From the IMG/VR virus record IMGVR_UViG_3300042934_000212: a stretch of 64,000 bases of DNA. The stretch is one strand, 5' to 3'. Numbering within the stretch: the stretch's first letter is position 1; each line of letters begins with the position of its first letter. Below the pieces are notes generated by a model. The model was not told the origin of the DNA, ran no database searches, and saw nothing but the letters and a program-made list of their open reading frames with translations. The translations under genes were made by a program, and so were the position numbers. Shown here piece by piece: positions 4,239-32,695 of the stretch. Source of the stretch: a virus. Taxonomy: Duplodnaviria; Heunggongvirae; Uroviricota; Caudoviricetes.

Positions 4239-4738
4239 TTAAAGCTGCTTTTGGGTGTATGTTAAGTCCATATAGGTCTTAAATGGTCCATAAAGTGCTT
4301 CGGTATTGTTTCTTTCTTCATAAATGTCAGTACTTAGAGTTAATCTAGGTAGATATGACCCATTTTCACTTCGAACTAACCACCAGCCAGGATAGAAACG
4401 CTTTTTCGAGCGAGAACTTTTCCTGAAAGTACCGATGCCTAATGGATCATCATATAGAATATCGATAATCGTATCAGTATCGTTAATAGGGTAGTCTCCT
4501 AGTGCTTTAGAAGCATTCGTACTGTCAGTAATGACAATCTCGGCATAAGTGAACTTTTCACCAAGTAATTCTTCAAGACCAGCCATAGAATCGAATTTCA
4601 ATGTACCCGTACTCGTAAAGAACTCAATTCCCTTACGTTCAGTAGTACCCTCGTCATAATTGACGAGAATACCCATCTTTTCACCAGTTGTAGTTTCTAC
4701 AATGAATGAATATTCGGTTAAAATCTTTAATACAGCCA

Positions 4739-23132: not shown

Positions 23133-25325
23133 TTATACATTTCGAGGTGCTTCAGTATTATCTGCAATCTGTCTCAATATCTGTGCAACTTGACCGTTGT
23201 TCTGCCCTTGTTGTTCTAAACTATTTAGTATTTGTCCAAGTAGCTTATTTACAGCGTCATTAGCAGCATTACTTGCTGTTTGAGCTTGGGTAGATTCGGC
23301 TTGGTCTGCTTGTTCAACTTTTGCAGGTGGAGTATATTCTGGTGGAGCAGTTACTTGCTGTCTTCCCGCTGTTTGTGGTTGGGAAGCAGTTGGTGTAACT
23401 GGCTTAGCATCATTTGAAGCAGTTTTACCAGGGGCAACAGGTTCTGTCTTTTTATCGTCATCACCAGCCCACCACTTTTTAAACCTACTCATTGCGTCAT
23501 TTAACTTATTGTTTAATGAATTATAGGTATCCATGAATGAATTTTTAAGACTATCGAATGAAAAGTCCATGCTACCTAACTTTTTGAACCCATCAATGAT
23601 ATTGTCATATAATGAACCAATTGCAGACTGTGCAGCTTCAGCTTTTTCATCGGAACTTGAATTCCACCATCCAGTAATCTTATCCCATAGTAATTGGGGT
23701 AGATTCATAAAGTCATTCATGAATTTCTCAAAGGAATCGGATACTTTCTTATAACTATCACCAAATAAATCATTAGCCCAGCCCTCTAACAGACCCTGAA
23801 GGTATAACATCCCACTATCAAAGATTTTAGGAATAGCTTTTAATGAATCTCTTATAAGTTTTGCTGAGAAATCCCATGCACCATCTGAATTATTTGCTAA
23901 ATCTAATAAGTACTTTGCTGCTGATTCAGTCGTGTCTGCATAAAACTTGCTAAATGGTTCAGTAAAGGTTTTACCCAACCATAAATTAAATTTATTAGTA
24001 AATTCTTCAACAATTGGACTTGGATTATTCTTTGGATCATTCAAAAGTTTTTCAGTTTGTAGCATTTGACGGTGGAAATTTTCTGCTGCTGTATTACCAA
24101 CTTGCCTATCAATATCTGCTTGCTTAGAAATCATGTCCTGATGTTCATGAATAAAGTTTGCTGTCATTCGGTTGATAGTACGTTGATCCGTAATACCAGA
24201 TTTCTGAACACCTTGCATGAATTGTGCAAACTGTTGAGATATTTCATCGTTAAATTCTTCGGGCAATGAACCTAATGACCACTTCGAAGCATTTAATTGC
24301 TGTGCAGTCTTACCAAATTCACCCATAGAAGCAAACATACCATTCCAGGTCTTCATAACTTCAATGGATTTTTCTTCCGTCATTCCTGCTTGACTTTGCA
24401 ATGCAGAAATTGTTGCTCCAGTATCAATGTTATTACTTAAATCATTAAATCTAGATAATAGTTCATCAACGCTCTTACCAACCGCTTTACTCAAATAAGT
24501 CATTGAGCCTACGAACTTTGTAGTACTCTGAGATTCGCTCATATTACGCATCGTCTGCTGACTAGCGTACATTTTTTCAAATTTAAAGTTTCTTGCAGTA
24601 ATGTCAGCTAATTGTTGCTGAGATACCCCATATAACCCCATTTGTTCCTGTGTAAGTTGAACGGTATTTAGTAATTTACCAAAGTGTTCTACACCATCAC
24701 CATATTGTGCTTCCATTGCAGCTAAAGCATCGCTGTTTTTAGTTACTGCCTGACTGAATTCATTAATACTCATGAATGCAGAACCAGAACCTTTACGTAC
24801 TGTCAGCATACCATTAGCAAGGGTAAGACCAGCACTGTTTAATTGGTTATACATTTGTAATTGTTGGTTCAAATAGTCATAGACCATCGCACCAACTTGT
24901 ACAATTTGCATAAATCCAGAAGCTACTAAACCGATTGGTCCAGGTAACATTCCTAGTGACCTTTGAAGTACTTTTGCTGAAGTACCTACTGCACCAACAA
25001 CATTCTGAATATTACCGTTATTACCTAACGCGGTTCTTCCAAGGTTTCCAGCTTCACCGAACAAATCCTTAAATGCATTCTTGAAGCTACTGCCTCCAGA
25101 ATTGTTTCCATTTCCATTTCTTCTACGGTTGTTATTACGGTTTCCGCCATTTGAACCACCAGAATTATTTCCATTGTTATTATTACCTGAACCAGAACCT
25201 GAATTTTTTCCAGTATTCTTTTTAACATCAAGTAGTATTTCACGCATTGCACTTAAATTATCATTCATGGAAACACTTTGGTTTAACAATTCCTGTTGGA
25301 TATAGTCGTTGCTTAATCCGGCCAT
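23133..25325 (-). CDS. Probable tape-measure/gp29-like protein
   Basis: About 730 aa, helical, Gln/Ala/Met-rich with periodic aromatic residues; adjacent to gp26/gp51-like genes; GAGG RBS before ATG 25325. Confidence 0.6.
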   Translation of the reverse strand: MAGLSNDYIQQELLNQSVSMNDNLSAMREILLDVKKNTGKNSGSGSGNNNNGNNSGGSNGGNRNNNRRRNGNGNNSGGSSFKNAFKDLFGEAGNLGRTALGNNGNIQNVVGAVGTSAKVLQRSLGMLPGPIGLVASGFMQIVQVGAMVYDYLNQQLQMYNQLNSAGLTLANGMLTVRKGSGSAFMSINEFSQAVTKNSDALAAMEAQYGDGVEHFGKLLNTVQLTQEQMGLYGVSQQQLADITARNFKFEKMYASQQTMRNMSESQSTTKFVGSMTYLSKAVGKSVDELLSRFNDLSNNIDTGATISALQSQAGMTEEKSIEVMKTWNGMFASMGEFGKTAQQLNASKWSLGSLPEEFNDEISQQFAQFMQGVQKSGITDQRTINRMTANFIHEHQDMISKQADIDRQVGNTAAENFHRQMLQTEKLLNDPKNNPSPIVEEFTNKFNLWLGKTFTEPFSKFYADTTESAAKYLLDLANNSDGAWDFSAKLIRDSLKAIPKIFDSGMLYLQGLLEGWANDLFGDSYKKVSDSFEKFMNDFMNLPQLLWDKITGWWNSSSDEKAEAAQSAIGSLYDNIIDGFKKLGSMDFSFDSLKNSFMDTYNSLNNKLNDAMSRFKKWWAGDDDKKTEPVAPGKTASNDAKPVTPTASQPQTAGRQQVTAPPEYTPPAKVEQADQAESTQAQTASNAANDAVNKLLGQILNSLEQQGQNNGQVAQILRQIADNTEAPRNV

Positions 25326-25337
25326 GTGTTTTTCCTC

Positions 25338-25379
25338 ATAAATAATCGTATACAAAATATATAGTATAGTCATATTTAT
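25338..25379. promoter_or_regulatory. Two face-to-face late boxes
   Basis: ATAAATA on + at 25338-25344 and on - at 25373-25379. Confidence 0.6.
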
Positions 25380-25391
25380 TATGGAGTCGAT

Positions 25392-26249
25392 ATGAATAAG
25401 ATGAACCCTTTATCAAAGTACACTAAAGTAGAAGTACTTTATGCTAAATTGGTAAGTAATGATGTTGTGAAATACCCTGAAGGTGTTTTACTTAATAACA
25501 CGGTAGAATGTGGTATCTGTGCTCGTTCTGCACGTGATGAATTGATGTTCAATAACCCTGATGCACTAATGAATGGTGAAGCAGTAGTTAATGTTATTGA
25601 AAACTGTGTTCCTAATATTGGAAACGCACGTAAACTTTTTGTACCAGATGTTGAGTTACTTCTAGTTGGTATTAAACTAGCAACTAAAGAACGTGAATAT
25701 CACATCGAAGTTGATTGCCCTAACTGTAAGCATCACGGTGCATTTGAGCGAGATTTACAAGTACTACTTGATAGTGCTGATTTACTTGAAGAACAACCAG
25801 AACTATTACTTGAAGATGTTGGTGGATTGCTACTAAAATTCCGTCCTCAAACTTGGGAAGAATATTCAGCATTCGGTCAGAATATGTTCCAACAACAGAA
25901 GAAAGCACAAGTCCTAGAGAATCGTGAAGATTTAACTGAAGCAGAGAAAATGGCTGTTTTTAGTGAGATTTTTGAAGTTATGACTAAACTAAGTTTTGAT
26001 ATGATTGTTTGTAATATTGACAGTATTGAAACTACAGAAGGAATGGTTATTACTGAGAAGGAGTTTATTGCAGAATGGTTAGGCGAACAGCCAGCATTTG
26101 TACTTAAACAAATTCGGGAAAAAGCAGATTGGATTAATAATACTGGTATCTCTCACGAGATGGATGTGGGATGTTCTAGTTGTGGTCATGAATGGACTAT
26201 TGAGAATCTTCAATTTGACCCTAGCAATTTTTTCGCACAAAGCTTCTAA
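25392..26249 (+). CDS. Baseplate hub/tail assembly chaperone (T4 gp26-like)
   Basis: NPLSKY, ARDELMFNNPDALMNG, D.ELLLVGIK.AT, CPNC and CSSC zinc motifs, terminal FDPSNFF. Confidence 0.75.
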   Translation: MNKMNPLSKYTKVEVLYAKLVSNDVVKYPEGVLLNNTVECGICARSARDELMFNNPDALMNGEAVVNVIENCVPNIGNARKLFVPDVELLLVGIKLATKEREYHIEVDCPNCKHHGAFERDLQVLLDSADLLEEQPELLLEDVGGLLLKFRPQTWEEYSAFGQNMFQQQKKAQVLENREDLTEAEKMAVFSEIFEVMTKLSFDMIVCNIDSIETTEGMVITEKEFIAEWLGEQPAFVLKQIREKADWINNTGISHEMDVGCSSCGHEWTIENLQFDPSNFFAQSF

Positions 26250-26269
26250 TCTCTGAACCACACGAGATC

Positions 26270-26446
26270 ATGCAGGAGATAGCAGATCTAAGACTGAATT
26301 CAGAAGACATTAAGAATGGGCTTATGGAAGTGTCTGTATACATAGAAAATACTACGTATGAAATGCTATTGAATATGCCAGTGACCGATAGAGATTTGCT
26401 TGTGAAGCAATACAACAAAAAGGTTAAAAAAGAAAATAAGAGATAA
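26270..26446 (+). CDS. Small gp51-like ORF, probably reached by -1 frameshift
   Basis: Not in the track (58 aa): MQEIADLRLNSEDIKNGLMEVSVYIENTTYEMLLNMPVTDRDLLVKQYNKKVKKENKR. Its frame is open from 26219; no good RBS. Confidence 0.7.
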   Translation: MQEIADLRLNSEDIKNGLMEVSVYIENTTYEMLLNMPVTDRDLLVKQYNKKVKKENKR

Positions 26447-26451
26447 CTAAG

Positions 26452-26476
26452 ACCAGCCTTTGTGCTGGTTTTTTTT
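26452..26476 (+). terminator. Intrinsic terminator
   Basis: ACCAGC-CTTTGT-GCTGGT followed by T7. Confidence 0.85.
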
Positions 26477-26479
26477 GTA

Positions 26480-27189
26480 TCTGAATTATTATAACTCTTT
26501 AGATTTGCCATACTTCGTATGTCAAAGAATTTTCGTTGTCTGTACATTCACTGCGTTCTGTACTGAACAACTCAATTCAGTTCTATTTCTTAATTCTCTT
26601 ATTAATAACTGTTACGTTCAACACTATTATACTGACGAGATTTTGTAGAGGACTTTATCATCCCCCCGCAGGGGAATGAAGACAATAAAAAAGTACCAAT
26701 TAAGGTACTGATATTGTTCTGACGATGATAGTCGTCGGATTTAATTGTATCGTAAATTTCTTATTAGAACGAAAGCGGGTTGATCTGTTTCTCTCTATTA
26801 CGGTCATGTTCAACGGTCGTGGGCTTACCACACTCAGCCTTAAGTCTATACAATCAAACTTAAAACCTATTCAACTGAAAATGGACGGATTTATATTGTA
26901 TAAATTCCATCGCAAAAATTAACATCAGTTAAATTCCCTTAGCTTTTTGGTAGGGCGATTCCTATATATCTATCGAGGATGTTCTGTTAAGCCTAATGAA
27001 CATCTTTATAGTGCCGTATTGCCGTGATTCGTAGTCTTATGTCGCTTTGTATGACTGCTAGTACTCTAACGGGTGTCTTCTGCACTTCGAACTGCTTGAA
27101 CTTCTCATCTATCCTCTACATTTTCGAGTGAATTAGGTTCTATTTTATCAGTACCGTTCAGTACCGCCAAGCAGGGTTGTTTTACTACA
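26480..27189 (-). ncRNA. Candidate large structured non-coding RNA or origin-primer RNA
   Basis: No credible ORF; consensus promoter at 27195-27223 points into it; many local hairpins and several 7-10 bp long-range complements. Strand and 3' end are uncertain. Confidence 0.55.
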
Positions 27190-27194
27190 TTCAT

Positions 27195-27223
27195 ATTATA
27201 CCACAAAAAAGCTTTCTGTTTCA
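27195..27223 (-). promoter_or_regulatory. Early/middle promoter driving the non-coding locus
   Basis: TGAAAC-N17-TATAAT, TGTGG extended -10. Confidence 0.85.
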
Positions 27224-27265
27224 CATTCTTGTAAATACATATACGTAGACTTTTTTGGGGTACAT

Positions 27266-27754
27266 ATGAAGAAAAGATTAAAAAATCCTAAAGAGGCAGC
27301 AGCCTATAGGAATGAACTATTAAAAAAACAAAAAGGTATTGATCCCATTTTAGGTATTCCGATTACCAAACCTGTTCTTGATCACCAACACTCAGGCAAC
27401 CAACATTGTCGTGAAGTACTTCAAAATGAAGTAAACGGTTGGGAAGGTAGAGTAGTTAACTCATATCGTAGATGCCTTGGACATTTAACGGATAAACCAA
27501 TACATGAAGTACTAAGAAATCTTGCAGACTATATTGAGCGTAATGGTAATATACCAGAAGAAGAACAAGTTATTCACCATACTGCACTTACAATTGATGT
27601 AAAGAAATTTAAAAATCTTCCAGCAGCACAACAATGCTCAATTCTAATTTCTTTTGGAGTAGAACCAGAATCTAACACTAAAAAAAGAGCTAATCAAGCA
27701 AGAAAGCTCATTAGGGAAGGATTACTTAATATGACACATATAAAAAAAGGATAA
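27266..27754 (+). CDS. Recombination endonuclease VII (T4 gp49-like)
   Basis: Q.GIDPI...PVLDHQH...CREVL...VN..EG, LRNLADY; 162 aa, close to gp49 size; TAAATA box at 27232. Confidence 0.8.
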   Translation: MKKRLKNPKEAAAYRNELLKKQKGIDPILGIPITKPVLDHQHSGNQHCREVLQNEVNGWEGRVVNSYRRCLGHLTDKPIHEVLRNLADYIERNGNIPEEEQVIHHTALTIDVKKFKNLPAAQQCSILISFGVEPESNTKKRANQARKLIREGLLNMTHIKKG

Positions 27755-27758
27755 CATA

Positions 27759-28634
27759 ATGCTTCCATTTACTAGAATTCTTCAGTACGGAAACACTATA
27801 CCTGATAGTGGTAAATTTAATGGAAATTCTACTAAACTTATTTCCACTATTCCATATGGACAAACTTGGTGTTGTGCATATGATAATAATGATACTATAT
27901 ACATATATGGTGGAACTTCTAATGGTTCAAATACGGGAGTTGTTAATTCATTATATACCTTTAGTATAAGTACGCAAGTAGTTACATTGGTAAGATCTAA
28001 TTTTTCTTCAGCACCAGTTGCAAACTCAGGTATGTGTTTTTATAATAATAAATTATATATTTTTGGTGGAACATCAAGTTCAGATGCTTTCAGTTATGAT
28101 GTAGTATCTCAAACAAAAACAACTTTACAGAGTGTTCCAACTGCTGGCCCAACTTCTGCAATTTTGTATAATAATAAAATTATAGTTATAACAAATAATA
28201 TTTCATATGAATATGATACAACAACGTCATCATATATTACTCAATATACAATACCATTTAATGTTAATACTTTATCACCATCAACCGCAATTATGGGTGA
28301 TTTTTTGTATTCTTTATCATATAGTCCAGCAAGACCTAATATAGATATATATAAAACAGATTTAAATTCTACACATACCAATGAAAATATTTTAACTACT
28401 ACAATTCCATTTTCACAATATAATTATTCAGTACTTGTTAATATAATGAATGGTTTATATATTTTTGATTCTGGATATATTTTACAATATATAAATGGTG
28501 GTTTAACTCAAATGAATATTTCAAATGCGAGTAATTTAATTTTACCTGGGTATTGTGTTGTAAAAAACACATTATATCTATTTGGTGGGTATAGAGGTTC
28601 TTCTAGACTTAATGAAATTTGGTTATTGACATAA
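27759..28634 (+). CDS. Kelch-like beta-propeller protein
   Basis: Repeats IYIYGG, LYIFGG, LYLFGG; very AT-rich. Confidence 0.75.
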   Translation: MLPFTRILQYGNTIPDSGKFNGNSTKLISTIPYGQTWCCAYDNNDTIYIYGGTSNGSNTGVVNSLYTFSISTQVVTLVRSNFSSAPVANSGMCFYNNKLYIFGGTSSSDAFSYDVVSQTKTTLQSVPTAGPTSAILYNNKIIVITNNISYEYDTTTSSYITQYTIPFNVNTLSPSTAIMGDFLYSLSYSPARPNIDIYKTDLNSTHTNENILTTTIPFSQYNYSVLVNIMNGLYIFDSGYILQYINGGLTQMNISNASNLILPGYCVVKNTLYLFGGYRGSSRLNEIWLLT

Positions 28635-28661
28635 AAAAAAGGAGCCTAATGGCTCCTTTTT
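28633..28661. terminator. Bidirectional intrinsic terminator
   Basis: A8-GGAGCC-TAAT-GGCTCC-T5. Confidence 0.9.
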
Positions 28662-28663
28662 GT

Positions 28664-30805
28664 TTATAAATCTAGTACGTCACAGAATTCCATAGAACTG
28701 AAACTATCTTCTTTCACTACTCGTAAGATTGAGCTTGCACGGCTTACCAATTCCTCACGATGAGATACTACAAAGATGTTTTTACCACGAACTGCACTCA
28801 AATCTTGAAGCATATGCCACGAACATTCAATACCACCAGTATCAAGGCCGTTATCTAGTAACTCATCAACTAATAGTACGTTAATGCTTTGATATAGAGA
28901 CTCGTATGTATCACGGAATGCTAGATTCAATGCAATGATTACACGAGTTCTTTCACCACGAGACAACTGTTTGAAGTCATACGACTGTCCGTTTAGCTCA
29001 ATGTCTACACTTAGGTCATTTAAGAATTCAACTGTGTGCTGTGAACCTGATTTCTCGATCCAGTATTGCAATCTTGAATTCAAGAATGAAATATTCTGCT
29101 CGATGATTCGACGGCGTACAAATGAATCTTTGTTCATTAGTAGTTTAGTCAAATAGTCCTGATGGTCAGCTAGTTTAACTAGTTTGTTGTATTCATCATA
29201 ATCCACATGCTGAATTGAGTTCGTTTTTAATGTCTCAATCTGCTCAAAGAATGGATTTTGTGATGATTGTTCACGCTCTAAAGATGAAACCAAAGAATTG
29301 AAAGCATGTTGCAAACCACGAACTTCTTCGGTGCTAAATGTTTCCGTGTATTCTTTTTCTTCAGTACTTTCTAACTCTGCAAATGCAGACATTAGTTCTT
29401 CATCATAGATATTAATATCTTCTTCAGTACTTTTCTTCTTTAGTTCTTCTAATTTGTGCTCATGAAGCTTTGCTTCTGATAATGTACGATAGAATGTCAC
29501 TGGTTTAGCAGGCATCTCAAAGACTTCCAAACGAGAAACTTCAAATTGTAGAGTTTGTAGCTCTCCATTTAGTGATTCAATCGCAGAGGTAATCTTTTGT
29601 ACTTCGTCTTCAGCTTTCTGCTTCATCTCGGAATGATTATCATCATGTTCTAATGAATGTTTACACAATGGACACTTACTTTCAGCAATTTCAGCTAGTT
29701 TCTGTTGTTCATTCTGCAAATAACCTTCCTGATGAGCAATTCGGTCTGTAACAGTTTTAATTTGTTGCTCTTTGAACCGTTTAGTGTTCAATGCTTCTTT
29801 CAGTATTTGCTCTAGTGCAACCCAATTAGCTAATTCTTCATGTAATGCTAGTTCAGATGCAATATCAAACTCGGAAAGCTTGTTAATACTATTAAGTACT
29901 TCCACTTTCTTTAGTTGTAGTGTATTAGAATAGTCTTCATGCTTAACTGCAAGTTGTGCTACACGATTTTCAAGATTGGTGCGGTGTGTATTGTGCTTAA
30001 TTGCTTCTTCCATCAATGCAGCTTGTGCAAATAATGTATCAAAATCAATTTCCTCATAGTCACTTAAGCTTTGAATAAGTTCTTCGATAGTTTTAGCTTT
30101 CTTCTGTTCGAATTCATTTGCTCGCGTCTGTAGAGATTCAATACTTTGTACAATACGCTTGTTCGATTCAGTAATAGTTTCAATTTTGAACTTTTCCTGG
30201 TCTGCAAGACGCTTGGTTTCCCTGTACATATCTTTAAGTAAGGTTGCTTTCTCGGTAAGTTGAGTAATACCAAGTAGTTCTTCAATCATTTCACGTTGTT
30301 TCTGTTGTGAAAGTGCTAAGAATGGTTCTACGTTAGCATTAAGTACTACGATATGTTCAAATAGTAACTGTGAAATACCTAAAATCTCATTCAAGTCTTC
30401 TTGGGTGTCTTTCTTTTCCCCACGCGATTCATCTGCGACAGGTTTCCCATCTTCTAGTGTTAAGAAATTGAAAAACGTGGGAGATCTCCCACGCTCAATT
30501 CTGTATTCAACACCATCTTTCTCGAAATCAATAATAACTTCACAATTCTTACCGTTAATCTTGTTTACTAGGTTAGGAATTTTAATATCATTACTAACAC
30601 TCTTACCATACAACCCATAAACAATACCTTGAATGATTGCAGACTTGCCTACACCATTCCTACGCCCTGCTGCATCATCACCTACTGATGCATCGTTGTT
30701 CTGACCAAGTACTAACGCAAGGTCAGTACTATCTAGGTCTAAAACTTGGGGTGCATTACCAAAAGAAAAGAAATTACGCATTGAAATGCGTTTAATAGAT
30801 AGCAT
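28664..30805 (-). CDS. gp46: Rad50/SbcC-like ATPase (gp46)
   Basis: NGVGKS Walker A, coiled coil with CPLC hook, LSRGE signature, LLVDE, VSH. Confidence 0.95.
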   Translation of the reverse strand: MLSIKRISMRNFFSFGNAPQVLDLDSTDLALVLGQNNDASVGDDAAGRRNGVGKSAIIQGIVYGLYGKSVSNDIKIPNLVNKINGKNCEVIIDFEKDGVEYRIERGRSPTFFNFLTLEDGKPVADESRGEKKDTQEDLNEILGISQLLFEHIVVLNANVEPFLALSQQKQREMIEELLGITQLTEKATLLKDMYRETKRLADQEKFKIETITESNKRIVQSIESLQTRANEFEQKKAKTIEELIQSLSDYEEIDFDTLFAQAALMEEAIKHNTHRTNLENRVAQLAVKHEDYSNTLQLKKVEVLNSINKLSEFDIASELALHEELANWVALEQILKEALNTKRFKEQQIKTVTDRIAHQEGYLQNEQQKLAEIAESKCPLCKHSLEHDDNHSEMKQKAEDEVQKITSAIESLNGELQTLQFEVSRLEVFEMPAKPVTFYRTLSEAKLHEHKLEELKKKSTEEDINIYDEELMSAFAELESTEEKEYTETFSTEEVRGLQHAFNSLVSSLEREQSSQNPFFEQIETLKTNSIQHVDYDEYNKLVKLADHQDYLTKLLMNKDSFVRRRIIEQNISFLNSRLQYWIEKSGSQHTVEFLNDLSVDIELNGQSYDFKQLSRGERTRVIIALNLAFRDTYESLYQSINVLLVDELLDNGLDTGGIECSWHMLQDLSAVRGKNIFVVSHREELVSRASSILRVVKEDSFSSMEFCDVLDL

Positions 30806-31848: not shown

Positions 31849-32695
31849 TTTGCTTCCTTTCTAGCATCTTCATTTCAATTTCGATTTGGCGTGTATGACT
31901 TGGATTAAACCCATGTAATTCAAGTAAATCATCACGAATGTTACGAACGTTCTTTTCAGAATTAAGTACTGAACGGAATGCGTTGTTAACGAATGAAGTA
32001 TAATATGCAAAAGGATTAAGCTGCACAGCAGGTTTGACTTTTTTGTATAAAATGCTTTCTGTAAAGAGTAGTGCGTTCTTAACTAGCTGAATTCTCGCAT
32101 CACCCATCATCTCATCTAAGTACGTATAATTACGGTAGTTAGGTTTATGAGATATTTCTTCTGCCAACTTAATAAACATCTTACCAAGTTCATTTGTCTG
32201 TCGCCCATGAGTTAGAGAAAACTCTCCATCTTCAAGGTCGCCTTTCCAATGTGATCTTGCAACTTCATAAAGAACTCCAGCATCATCAACAATGTAATGC
32301 TTGAATGGTTCGAAGTTTGTACGTACTTTCTTATCATCGGGGTTGTTTTCAATGAAAGGAATATGTTCATTACAAATGACTCGGATAACAACCTCATCAA
32401 TTGGAACATCTGTAAGTAGTAAATTGTGTTCTTCAGCGTACTCTTTTGTTTTCTTGGCAGTGAAAGCATGTTCAGCACGTATTTTATCAAGTGTACTATT
32501 GTTCAAACGCTTGATACGTTCTGCTTTAGCCACTTCAAGTAATTCTTCAGTAATTTCGGACTCGTCGAAGACGATGTAATCATACATATTGTAAGCATCG
32601 TCTAGAACCCAACAATATGACATTTTACTGATGTGAATTTCTCTTAGCAAATCCGCATTGTTTAGATACTTTTTGCGTTTTGGTCTAGTTGCCAT
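31835..32695 (-). CDS. gp55: Late-transcription sigma factor (gp55-like)
   Basis: YLNNADL, LGKMFIKLAE.IS.KPNY.NYTY.DEM, NPFAYYT....NAF.....EK. Confidence 0.88.
   Translation of the reverse strand: MATRPKRKKYLNNADLLREIHISKMSYCWVLDDAYNMYDYIVFDESEITEELLEVAKAERIKRLNNSTLDKIRAEHAFTAKKTKEYAEEHNLLLTDVPIDEVVIRVICNEHIPFIENNPDDKKVRTNFEPFKHYIVDDAGVLYEVARSHWKGDLEDGEFSLTHGRQTNELGKMFIKLAEEISHKPNYRNYTYLDEMMGDARIQLVKNALLFTESILYKKVKPAVQLNPFAYYTSFVNNAFRSVLNSEKNVRNIRDDLLELHGFNPSHTRQIEIEMKMLERKQNGTI

Follow-up and report, generated by a model that had tools for sequence, protein, structure and literature searches.

A multi-copy pseudoknotted RNA element of Rak2-like jumbo phages, most likely an RNA-primed replication origin

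An upstream segment of RNA II of ColE1 pairs with the template DNA. In the excerpts of the literature drawn on here, ColE1 is described with a promoter 550 bp upstream, a G-rich stretch, the involvement of RNase H, and helicase loading on the non-template strand (PMC5043065, PMC6317783). The T4 origins oriF and oriG, again as given in excerpts, are R-loop origins that consist of a middle promoter and an AT-rich element; T4 origins share no common sequence motif, need about 100 bp and call for no particular RNA sequence (PMC3016281). According to part of a further paper, prophages of cluster A mycobacteriophages require a non-coding RNA for replication without a Rep protein (PMC7157519). Phage RNAs of a size comparable to the one described here are also on record, namely ROOL and GOLLD, which the portion of the source used here lists with function unknown (PMC12286853). 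The literature searched holds no account of where or how replication starts in the 350-kb genomes of Rak2-like jumbo phages.

Here we analyze a locus within a 64,000-nt stretch of viral DNA (IMG/VR record IMGVR_UViG_3300042934_000212), which we call the window and whose positions are used throughout. The window belongs to a GAP32/CBB-like (Rak2-like) jumbo phage near Pectobacterium phage CBB and Cronobacter phage GAP32, its hub protein being 85% identical to that of CBB and 83% identical to that of GAP32. An earlier reading made from the letters alone (the sequence-only reading) had proposed that positions 26480-27223 encode a promoter-driven, highly structured RNA of about 700 nt.

The gap, its neighbours and its copies

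The interval between 26447 and 27265 contains no conserved ORF and, as had been proposed, is the sole internal gap of this kind in the window. The 65-aa ORF on its plus strand (26725-26922) has no counterpart in other copies of the element, and across 63 copies the longest ORF has a median length of 43 aa in the sense and 65 aa in the antisense direction. A small ORF was the alternative that the sequence-only reading had itself raised; no conserved one was found over the 63 copies, and a protein-coding gene was rejected as the identity of the locus on that ground. Recent GenBank annotations (L005, L007 and others) place three to five short hypothetical genes inside the RNA, and these look like false gene calls.

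The neighbouring genes all lie outside the element and on the plus strand: a gp26-like baseplate hub gene (25392-26249) and a 58-aa ORF (26270-26446) on one side, and a divergent endonuclease VII gene (27266-27754) on the other. The endonuclease gene is a neighbour only, since it stands beside just one of the 3-5 copies and RaK2 has the gene without the RNA adjoining. A bidirectional terminator (26449-26472, assigned to no strand) is common to the hub operon and the element and is present at the hub-syntenic copies; most copies elsewhere continue into unrelated genes. The window copy is oriented against both neighbour genes, yet it lies on the strand common to all copies. No tRNA or tmRNA genes were found in the window by ARAGORN. 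Behind the endonuclease gene lies a 291-aa ORF with repeat-like GG motifs (phrog_12615, 27759-28634), which is absent there in GAP32 and BF. Insertions beside the hub-site copy were seen in other phages, i.e., an adenine methyltransferase gene downstream in fHe-Yen9-04 (L004:677-1483), two ORFs downstream in XaC1 (L022:4049-4980) and one ORF upstream in Munch (L006:2190-3146). PA5oct has a 1.5-kb gene-poor gap at the equivalent site, between its hub and resolvase genes (L025:4530-6040), and a different element may lie there.

Among 50,697 phage records, 62 matched the locus (65-78% identity), and the 60 that were listed had 3-5 matching places each. Whole-record profile searches located five copies in CBB (32.3, 94.2, 174.4, 258.1 and 336.3 kb) and four in 121Q (90.3, 192.8, 247.5 and 326.6 kb), on a single strand in each case. 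BF, Munch and XaC1 have five copies each, Turkey5 has four and RaK2 at least three; these are the copy numbers of named relatives and not of the window's own phage. Within a genome, the copies share one strand and are dispersed round the genome. Their spacing is more even than random in CBB (P 0.005) and Munch (P 0.003) and not clearly even in 121Q, XaC1 and RaK2 (P 0.05-0.13), and these genomes are not independent of each other. Identity between the window copy and the five copies of CBB lies at 55-81%, and the duplications are old, because the positions of the paralogues are partly common to several genera. One match in Turkey5 was considered as a relocated copy and rejected, as it is a paralogue. 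The element is absent from the RaK2 hub site, and PA5oct, Atu_ph07 and Vibrio 2.275.O yielded no match (best E 0.29-0.7), their hub loci having been covered by profile search too.

Copies are also carried by bacterial islands. Two of 5,426 E. coli genomes have a copy, and the E. coli island is 10.7 kb long, sits at ffs, and has 24-nt att repeats, a resolvase and an integrase broken by IS3. Two further islands, on Buttiauxella and Enterobacteriaceae contigs, hold one copy each. On these two contigs the copy adjoins repressor-like, Ner-like, LprI and resolvase genes, and one of the contigs shows an intact integrase; the genes of the second enterobacterial contig were named by their likeness to those of the first. 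The island copies form two distinct clades, suggesting that capture happened twice. The island proteins scanned included no recognised Rep or primase family, and a hidden Rep is possible because several of these proteins have no family. In the Buttiauxella island, the phage-type promoter occurs twice, before the RNA and just after the integrase gene (L255:4019-4048, 4544-4573). Transduction of such islands by jumbo phages has a precedent in another phage group, as described in an excerpt of PMC12595487. True copies accounted for 3 of 120 loci from the genome collection, the scan of which covered 34 of 64 parts; the metagenome scan covered 38 of 64.

The element is an uncatalogued RNA family. 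Rfam returned no match at gathering level for the window, and the covariance-model check proposed by the sequence-only reading found nothing meaningful on the locus at E values up to 10. Copies in 10 further loci likewise gave nothing at E up to 1, and none of the Rfam models for group I and group II introns, RNase P RNA, tmRNA or small ribozymes matched. Our literature search, subscription journals aside, retrieved no description of this RNA, and the portions of the CBB, Sharanji and PA5oct papers at hand do not mention it. No match was present in the table and text supplements of the Fremin 2023 viral RNA catalogue (PMC10690425), a fragment of the RNA may stand in the alignments of that catalogue, and the earlier description of the RNA as undescribed holds for Rfam and the literature searched and for the part of the catalogue that was checked.

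Covariation and strand

Covariation strongly supports the claim of a large ornate phage RNA, one for which a match in Rfam is absent. Over 52 non-redundant copies with a mean identity of 61%, 47 column pairs exceeded G>20 versus 2.7 expected in a tree-based null, and 28 exceeded G>26 versus 0.08 expected. In a separate alignment of 20 of the 52 copies, the derived structure was 96% paired and two-sided changes were found in 56 of its 69 pairs; slid controls were about 40% paired, a control that favours a derived structure. The folding energy is better than that of 20 dinucleotide shuffles on both strands (z -3.5 for minus, z -3.8 for plus). The functional strand, which the earlier reading had left unresolved, is the minus strand, because G-U exceeds A-C there (weighted 41 vs 11.5 over 46 covarying pairs) and the promoters point the same way. 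Public sequencing data were searched over 24400-29400: seven contig sets, preselected for holding the stretch, gave short pieces only, several inside the element and others in the flanking genes, and one raw-read run gave 0 reads, which is uninformative on expression either way.

The covarying core is about 445 nt long (26744-27188, minus), with its 5' end placed from the -10 box, and includes three pseudoknots supported by covariation. The 5' domain (27089-27170) is built on P1 (27170-27167 with 27099-27096), P2 (27136-27126 with 27116-27109) and PK1 (27104-27102 with 27091-27089), which crosses P1; covariation identifies each of these. In the 3' knotted domain (26744-26867), also drawn from covariation, the 7-bp PK2 reaches from the loop of the hairpin 26867-26836 (26854-26848 with 26750-26744) and has two-sided changes in 7 of 7 pairs, and PK3 (26814-26810 with 26783-26779) crosses the stems 26802-26798:26755-26751 and 26795-26791:26775-26771. 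Isolated covarying contacts at 26857/26752 and 26855/26803 suggest base triples, and many unpaired bases are invariant across copies. The helices supported by covariation stop near 26744.

All the complements listed in the sequence-only reading are present in the window sequence, and comparison across copies sorted them. The three long-range nested helices turned out to be specific to the window, being 0.48, 0.42 and 0.69 paired across copies and showing no covariation. Among the local hairpins, GTTGA/TCAAC and GATGTTC/GAACATC were borne out, with standard-pair shares of 1.00 and 0.88 and covariation in both, as were CATAC/GTATG (0.80) and CCCC/GGGG (0.97, with no covariation). AGTACC/GGTACT has 0.92 standard pairs but occurs in about 31 of the 52 copies, and TTTATA/TATAAA and AGTC/GACT both fall in optional modules. 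The register of GGCT/AGCC (0.38) and of GACGA/TCGTC (0.55) is not kept across copies. A long-range GAUG/CGUC pair predicted by RNAalifold is invariant and therefore uninformative on pairing; in RaK2 copies it has a U-U mismatch.

Parts of the core appear to be exchangeable. One 17-nt module (of the type ACAATATA...CGTCC; 26883-26915 of the window, minus) is present in one or both of two stems or is missing. Its pattern was found at 32603, 94650 and 336570 in CBB and at 90537, 193063, 247745 and 247897 in 121Q, so that 7 of 7 matches in these two genomes are inside copies; it is a possible protein-binding site or tertiary module. The stem after CCCG (27027-27065, minus, and equivalents) takes several unrelated, interchangeable forms that paralogues and genera have in common, suggestive of recombination among copies. 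The RaK2 copies at 191 kb and 280 kb (L359, L367) have nearly identical 3' halves and differing 5' halves, suggesting recent gene conversion.

Promoter, DNA signals and the two boxes

The sequence-only reading had described a consensus early promoter at 27195-27223. A minus-strand promoter is present at this position, but it is not of the canonical early type and belongs instead to the TGAAAC-13-TGnTATAAT class, i.e., the replication-gene class of Rak2-like phages. Its upstream element is a TGAAACA box (27217-27223), which carries TGAAAC and not TTGACA, separated by a 13-nt spacer from the extended -10 TGGTATAAT (27195-27203). The strict pattern lies upstream of 40 of the 52 copies, and near-matches are visible in most others. 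CBB has 35 sites of this class, among them all 5 copies, and the class also stands upstream of the DNA polymerase operon, RNase H and SSB genes of that phage. We take the timing of the class from the genes that it precedes, and part of the CBB paper links it to the DNA-synthesis genes (PMC5259590).

Several features follow the core on the minus strand. The first of those given here is an optional terminator-like hairpin with a U tract (26687-26709), a possible pause or stop that separates box 1 from the G-tract; the hairpin occurs in about 31 of 52 copies. The C4-TGC-G6 hairpin (26662-26674) is 0.97 paired without covariation, and its G-tract (26662-26667), on the non-template strand, lies upstream of box 2. 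An AT-rich stretch (26590-26631) is a candidate unwinding element; the 40 nt that follow box 2 have a mean AT content of 76-79% over 50 copies versus 59% in the core. Farther on lies GAACGCAGTGAA (26547-26558), a C-GNA-G mini-hairpin closed by tandem G.A, and a second, C-GAA-G triloop hairpin with a covarying stem lies at 26507-26523. According to excerpts of PMC13037366, the DNA form of GNA mini-hairpins is far more stable than the RNA form, and such hairpins occur at the G4 and RSF1010 priming sites.

Within 200 nt after box 2, C-GNA-G was counted 80 times in sense and 7 times in antisense, against 17 in shuffles (maximum 29), and it is present in 45 of 50 copies; the downstream counts refer to these 50, two of the 52 having been left out for a short flank or a pattern miss. 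The core has no such sense bias (55 vs 75). These counts overstate the independent evidence because the copies are related, and the strict ColE1-like form makes up 14 of the 80 sense matches. In two of the CBB copies, C-GNA-G is missing from these 200 nt. Perfect plus-strand C-GNA-G hairpins fall at copies in 5 of 7 cases in 121Q and 3 of 5 in CBB, and the CBB minus strand has eight perfect hairpins, away from copies. GC skew shows no switch at copies; fourfold-site skew of plus versus minus genes (+0.10 vs -0.02 in CBB, +0.04 vs -0.09 in 121Q) is not diagnostic. The last ~130 nt of the locus look like single-stranded-DNA signals rather than RNA. Since the fold ends near 26744 and these signals then follow, the locus is better read as a cis-acting RNA and DNA module than as a free 700-nt RNA.

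Box 1 (ATCATCGTCAG, 11 nt, 26719-26729, minus) is the predicted RNA anchor for the template strand of box 2 (ATCTCGTCAG, 26632-26641, minus), the predicted DNA target. Box 2 is a direct repeat of box 1 minus the fourth base, and in each of the 63 copies it lies 15-19 nt downstream of the G-tract. One of the top covarying pairs, 26728/26640, joins bases that are identical, not complementary. At box position 2 the copies have either T/T (38) or C/C (25), a match in 63 of 63, with five joint changes on the whole-RNA tree and seven on a tree of the local block from which the boxes had been masked out; the match is likewise complete (63 of 63) at positions 3, 6 and 7. At the last base the counts are A/A 34, G/G 25, G/A 4 and A/G 0, an asymmetry consistent with wobble of box 1 on the template.

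The best predictor of position 2 among the other columns of the block reaches 0.79, against a baseline of 0.60, and because the neighbouring columns do not track it, block transfer fails to explain this lock-step. No column inside the RNA is complementary to position 2 (best 0.76), and both variants occur inside single genomes (CBB, 121Q), which argues against the sequence preference of one protein. The RaK2 copies, found after the pattern had been defined, have otherwise invariant bases changed in both boxes. The predicted RNA-DNA hybrid would be short, spanning about 10 bp and containing a bulge, and in 31 of 63 copies it would have a mismatch at one box position, where rG faces dA or dG. 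Slipped DNA-strand pairing or antisense-RNA pairing would give equal lock-step.

Candidate function and comparison with known systems

Judging from these sequence features, the element is probably a ColE1-like R-loop primer at one of several replication origins of a Rak2-like jumbo phage. The replication-gene-type promoter would give rise to a triple-pseudoknotted RNA of ~550 nt, whose fold would present box 1 for pairing with the template strand of box 2, just behind the G-tract, and the transcript would stay on its own DNA as an R-loop. Trimming of the R-loop by phage RNase H may leave a 3' end that primes DNA synthesis, a helicase or primase may load on the displaced strand at the mini-hairpins, and the phage RNase H and replication proteins would turn the R-loop into a fork. 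Islands would use the element for their own copying during phage infection. The genes of CBB include two for RNase H, one for an RNA-DNA helicase and Dda, and the excerpted CBB paper gives the gp59 loader as absent (PMC5259590). What we count in support of an origin is the fold and its strand, the copy numbers, the orientation, the promoter class, the lock-step, the GNA bias, the AT-rich stretch, the carriage by islands, and a layout that resembles ColE1 and joins to it the several promoter-driven R-loop origins of T4. Against it stand the short and partly mismatched hybrid, the C-GNA-G hairpins away from copies and the copies that lack the motif, the GC skew, the missing sequence likeness to ColE1, and a fold that exceeds in elaboration what T4 origins need. 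More tentatively, and with some doubt on our side, the element could represent a new class of self-targeting initiator RNA, ribozyme-like and triple-pseudoknotted, whose short built-in guide invades its own DNA and which fires several origins on a 350-kb lytic phage genome with no need of an initiator protein; small chromosomal islands would then have captured it as a replicon of RNA only, with which to parasitise these jumbo phages.

Other readings were weighed against the same evidence. A free ornate RNA that acts in trans, in the manner of ROOL or GOLLD (a scaffold, nanocage or protein sponge), with its copies serving dosage or mixed assembly, is unlikely: the size, the three pseudoknots, the tertiary-type covariation and the many invariant unpaired bases suit such an RNA, but the copies have no common 3' end, there is neither an Rfam score nor a tRNA gene in the window, and the lock-step, the DNA-type hairpins, the common strand and the dispersal would all go unexplained. 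About equally improbable is a cis-acting RNA-DNA module with another job, be it as a site of recombination, packaging or genome organisation or as a leader, activated by the phage, for control of the genes that follow. The downstream genes differ between copies, a terminator and an antisense gene come after the window copy, and the replication-class promoter, G-tract, AT-rich stretch and mini-hairpins jointly resemble a primer-type origin, even though all the cis features are compatible with any site based on an R-loop, the element contains a terminator-like hairpin, and four of five CBB copies directly precede a same-strand gene. Islands could also use a packaging signal as well as an origin, jumbo-phage transduction of islands being on record (PMC12595487).

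We regard it as very improbable that the element is a ribozyme, or a selfish mobile RNA spreading through RNA-guided targeting, with endonuclease VII as its partner. The element has moved between phages and islands, its modules are swapped and the 3' halves in RaK2 are near-identical, and nested pseudoknots are typical of catalytic RNAs; against this, the paralogue positions are old and common to genera, the endonuclease gene stands beside one copy only and is found in RaK2 with no RNA alongside, models of introns, RNase P and ribozymes do not score, and box 1 corresponds to the locus in which it lies rather than to a variable target. A HEARO or OMEGA-type nuclease-associated RNA was rejected as well, there being no fixed link to a nuclease gene.

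If the primer-origin reading is true, ColE1-style priming extends to multi-origin lytic phages by way of an unrelated and far more complex fold, the islands represent a type of jumbo-phage satellite with an RNA-only replicon, and phage-triggered replicons may serve as tools. If it is false, what is left is still a large RNA family, uncatalogued and with very strong support for its structure. The large ornate phage RNAs ROOL and GOLLD are without assigned function, and this family is a large RNA that comes with a precise and cheap test.

Compared with ROOL and GOLLD, the likeness is that all are large, pseudoknotted, phage-borne RNAs, and the size class given in the sequence-only reading stands; beyond size, no Rfam score backs the likeness even at E 10. 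The element differs in that it is not next to tRNA genes in the window and is multi-copy with cis DNA signals. Membership of ROOL, GOLLD or OLE was rejected, as no Rfam covariance model scored at the locus or at 10 further loci. The RNA origins of mycobacteriophages (Wetzel et al. 2020) resemble the function proposed here, in that a phage non-coding RNA serves replication there without a Rep protein; unlike the element, they are single-copy, serve prophage maintenance, are dispensable for lytic growth and belong to another host phylum. With T4 oriF and oriG the element would share the use of several origins in one genome, and it has in common with them a phage-activated promoter with AT-rich DNA behind it and the presence of a phage RNase H and a UvsW-type helicase. 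It differs from them in that all copies are homologous and a conserved fold of ~445 nt stands between the promoter and the AT-rich DNA, and a T4-type minimal origin of ~100 bp without sequence-specific RNA structure was rejected because of that fold.

The comparison with ColE1 is one of layout. Sequence likeness to ColE1-type origins was none beyond 47-nt chance matches among 72,556 plasmid records, and membership of the ColE1 family was rejected by this absence of homology and the lack of an Rfam match. No conserved RNA I-like antisense unit was seen, the plus-strand promoter matches in the window were weak (9/12), and Rop was not seen. The element differs further in its three pseudoknots, in a 10-11-nt copy-specific repeat where ColE1 has a G-run pair, and in being present in 3-5 copies on a lytic phage chromosome under a phage-class promoter. 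ColE1 has CTCGTCAG, equal to the end of box 2, directly before its G-tract (L355:1168-1180) whereas here it comes after the G-tract; this match is probably chance.

In both systems, a promoter (here with the -10 box at 27195) precedes a G-rich stretch and switch point by ~550 bp; the candidate single-strand signals downstream of box 2 are on the non-template strand. The order here is promoter, ~550 nt of folded RNA, G-tract, AT-rich DNA and single-strand hairpins; the distance from promoter to box 2 is ~555 nt in the window, and the mean core over 50 copies is 523 nt (range 437-616). The motif GA-x-C-GNA-G-x'-GA occurs downstream in both, GAACGCAGTGA of the window being equal in pattern to the motif ~135 nt past the ColE1 origin, which we take to be the primosome site. 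On our analysis, the element is most likely an RNA-primed origin that is ColE1-like in its working and unrelated to ColE1 in sequence.
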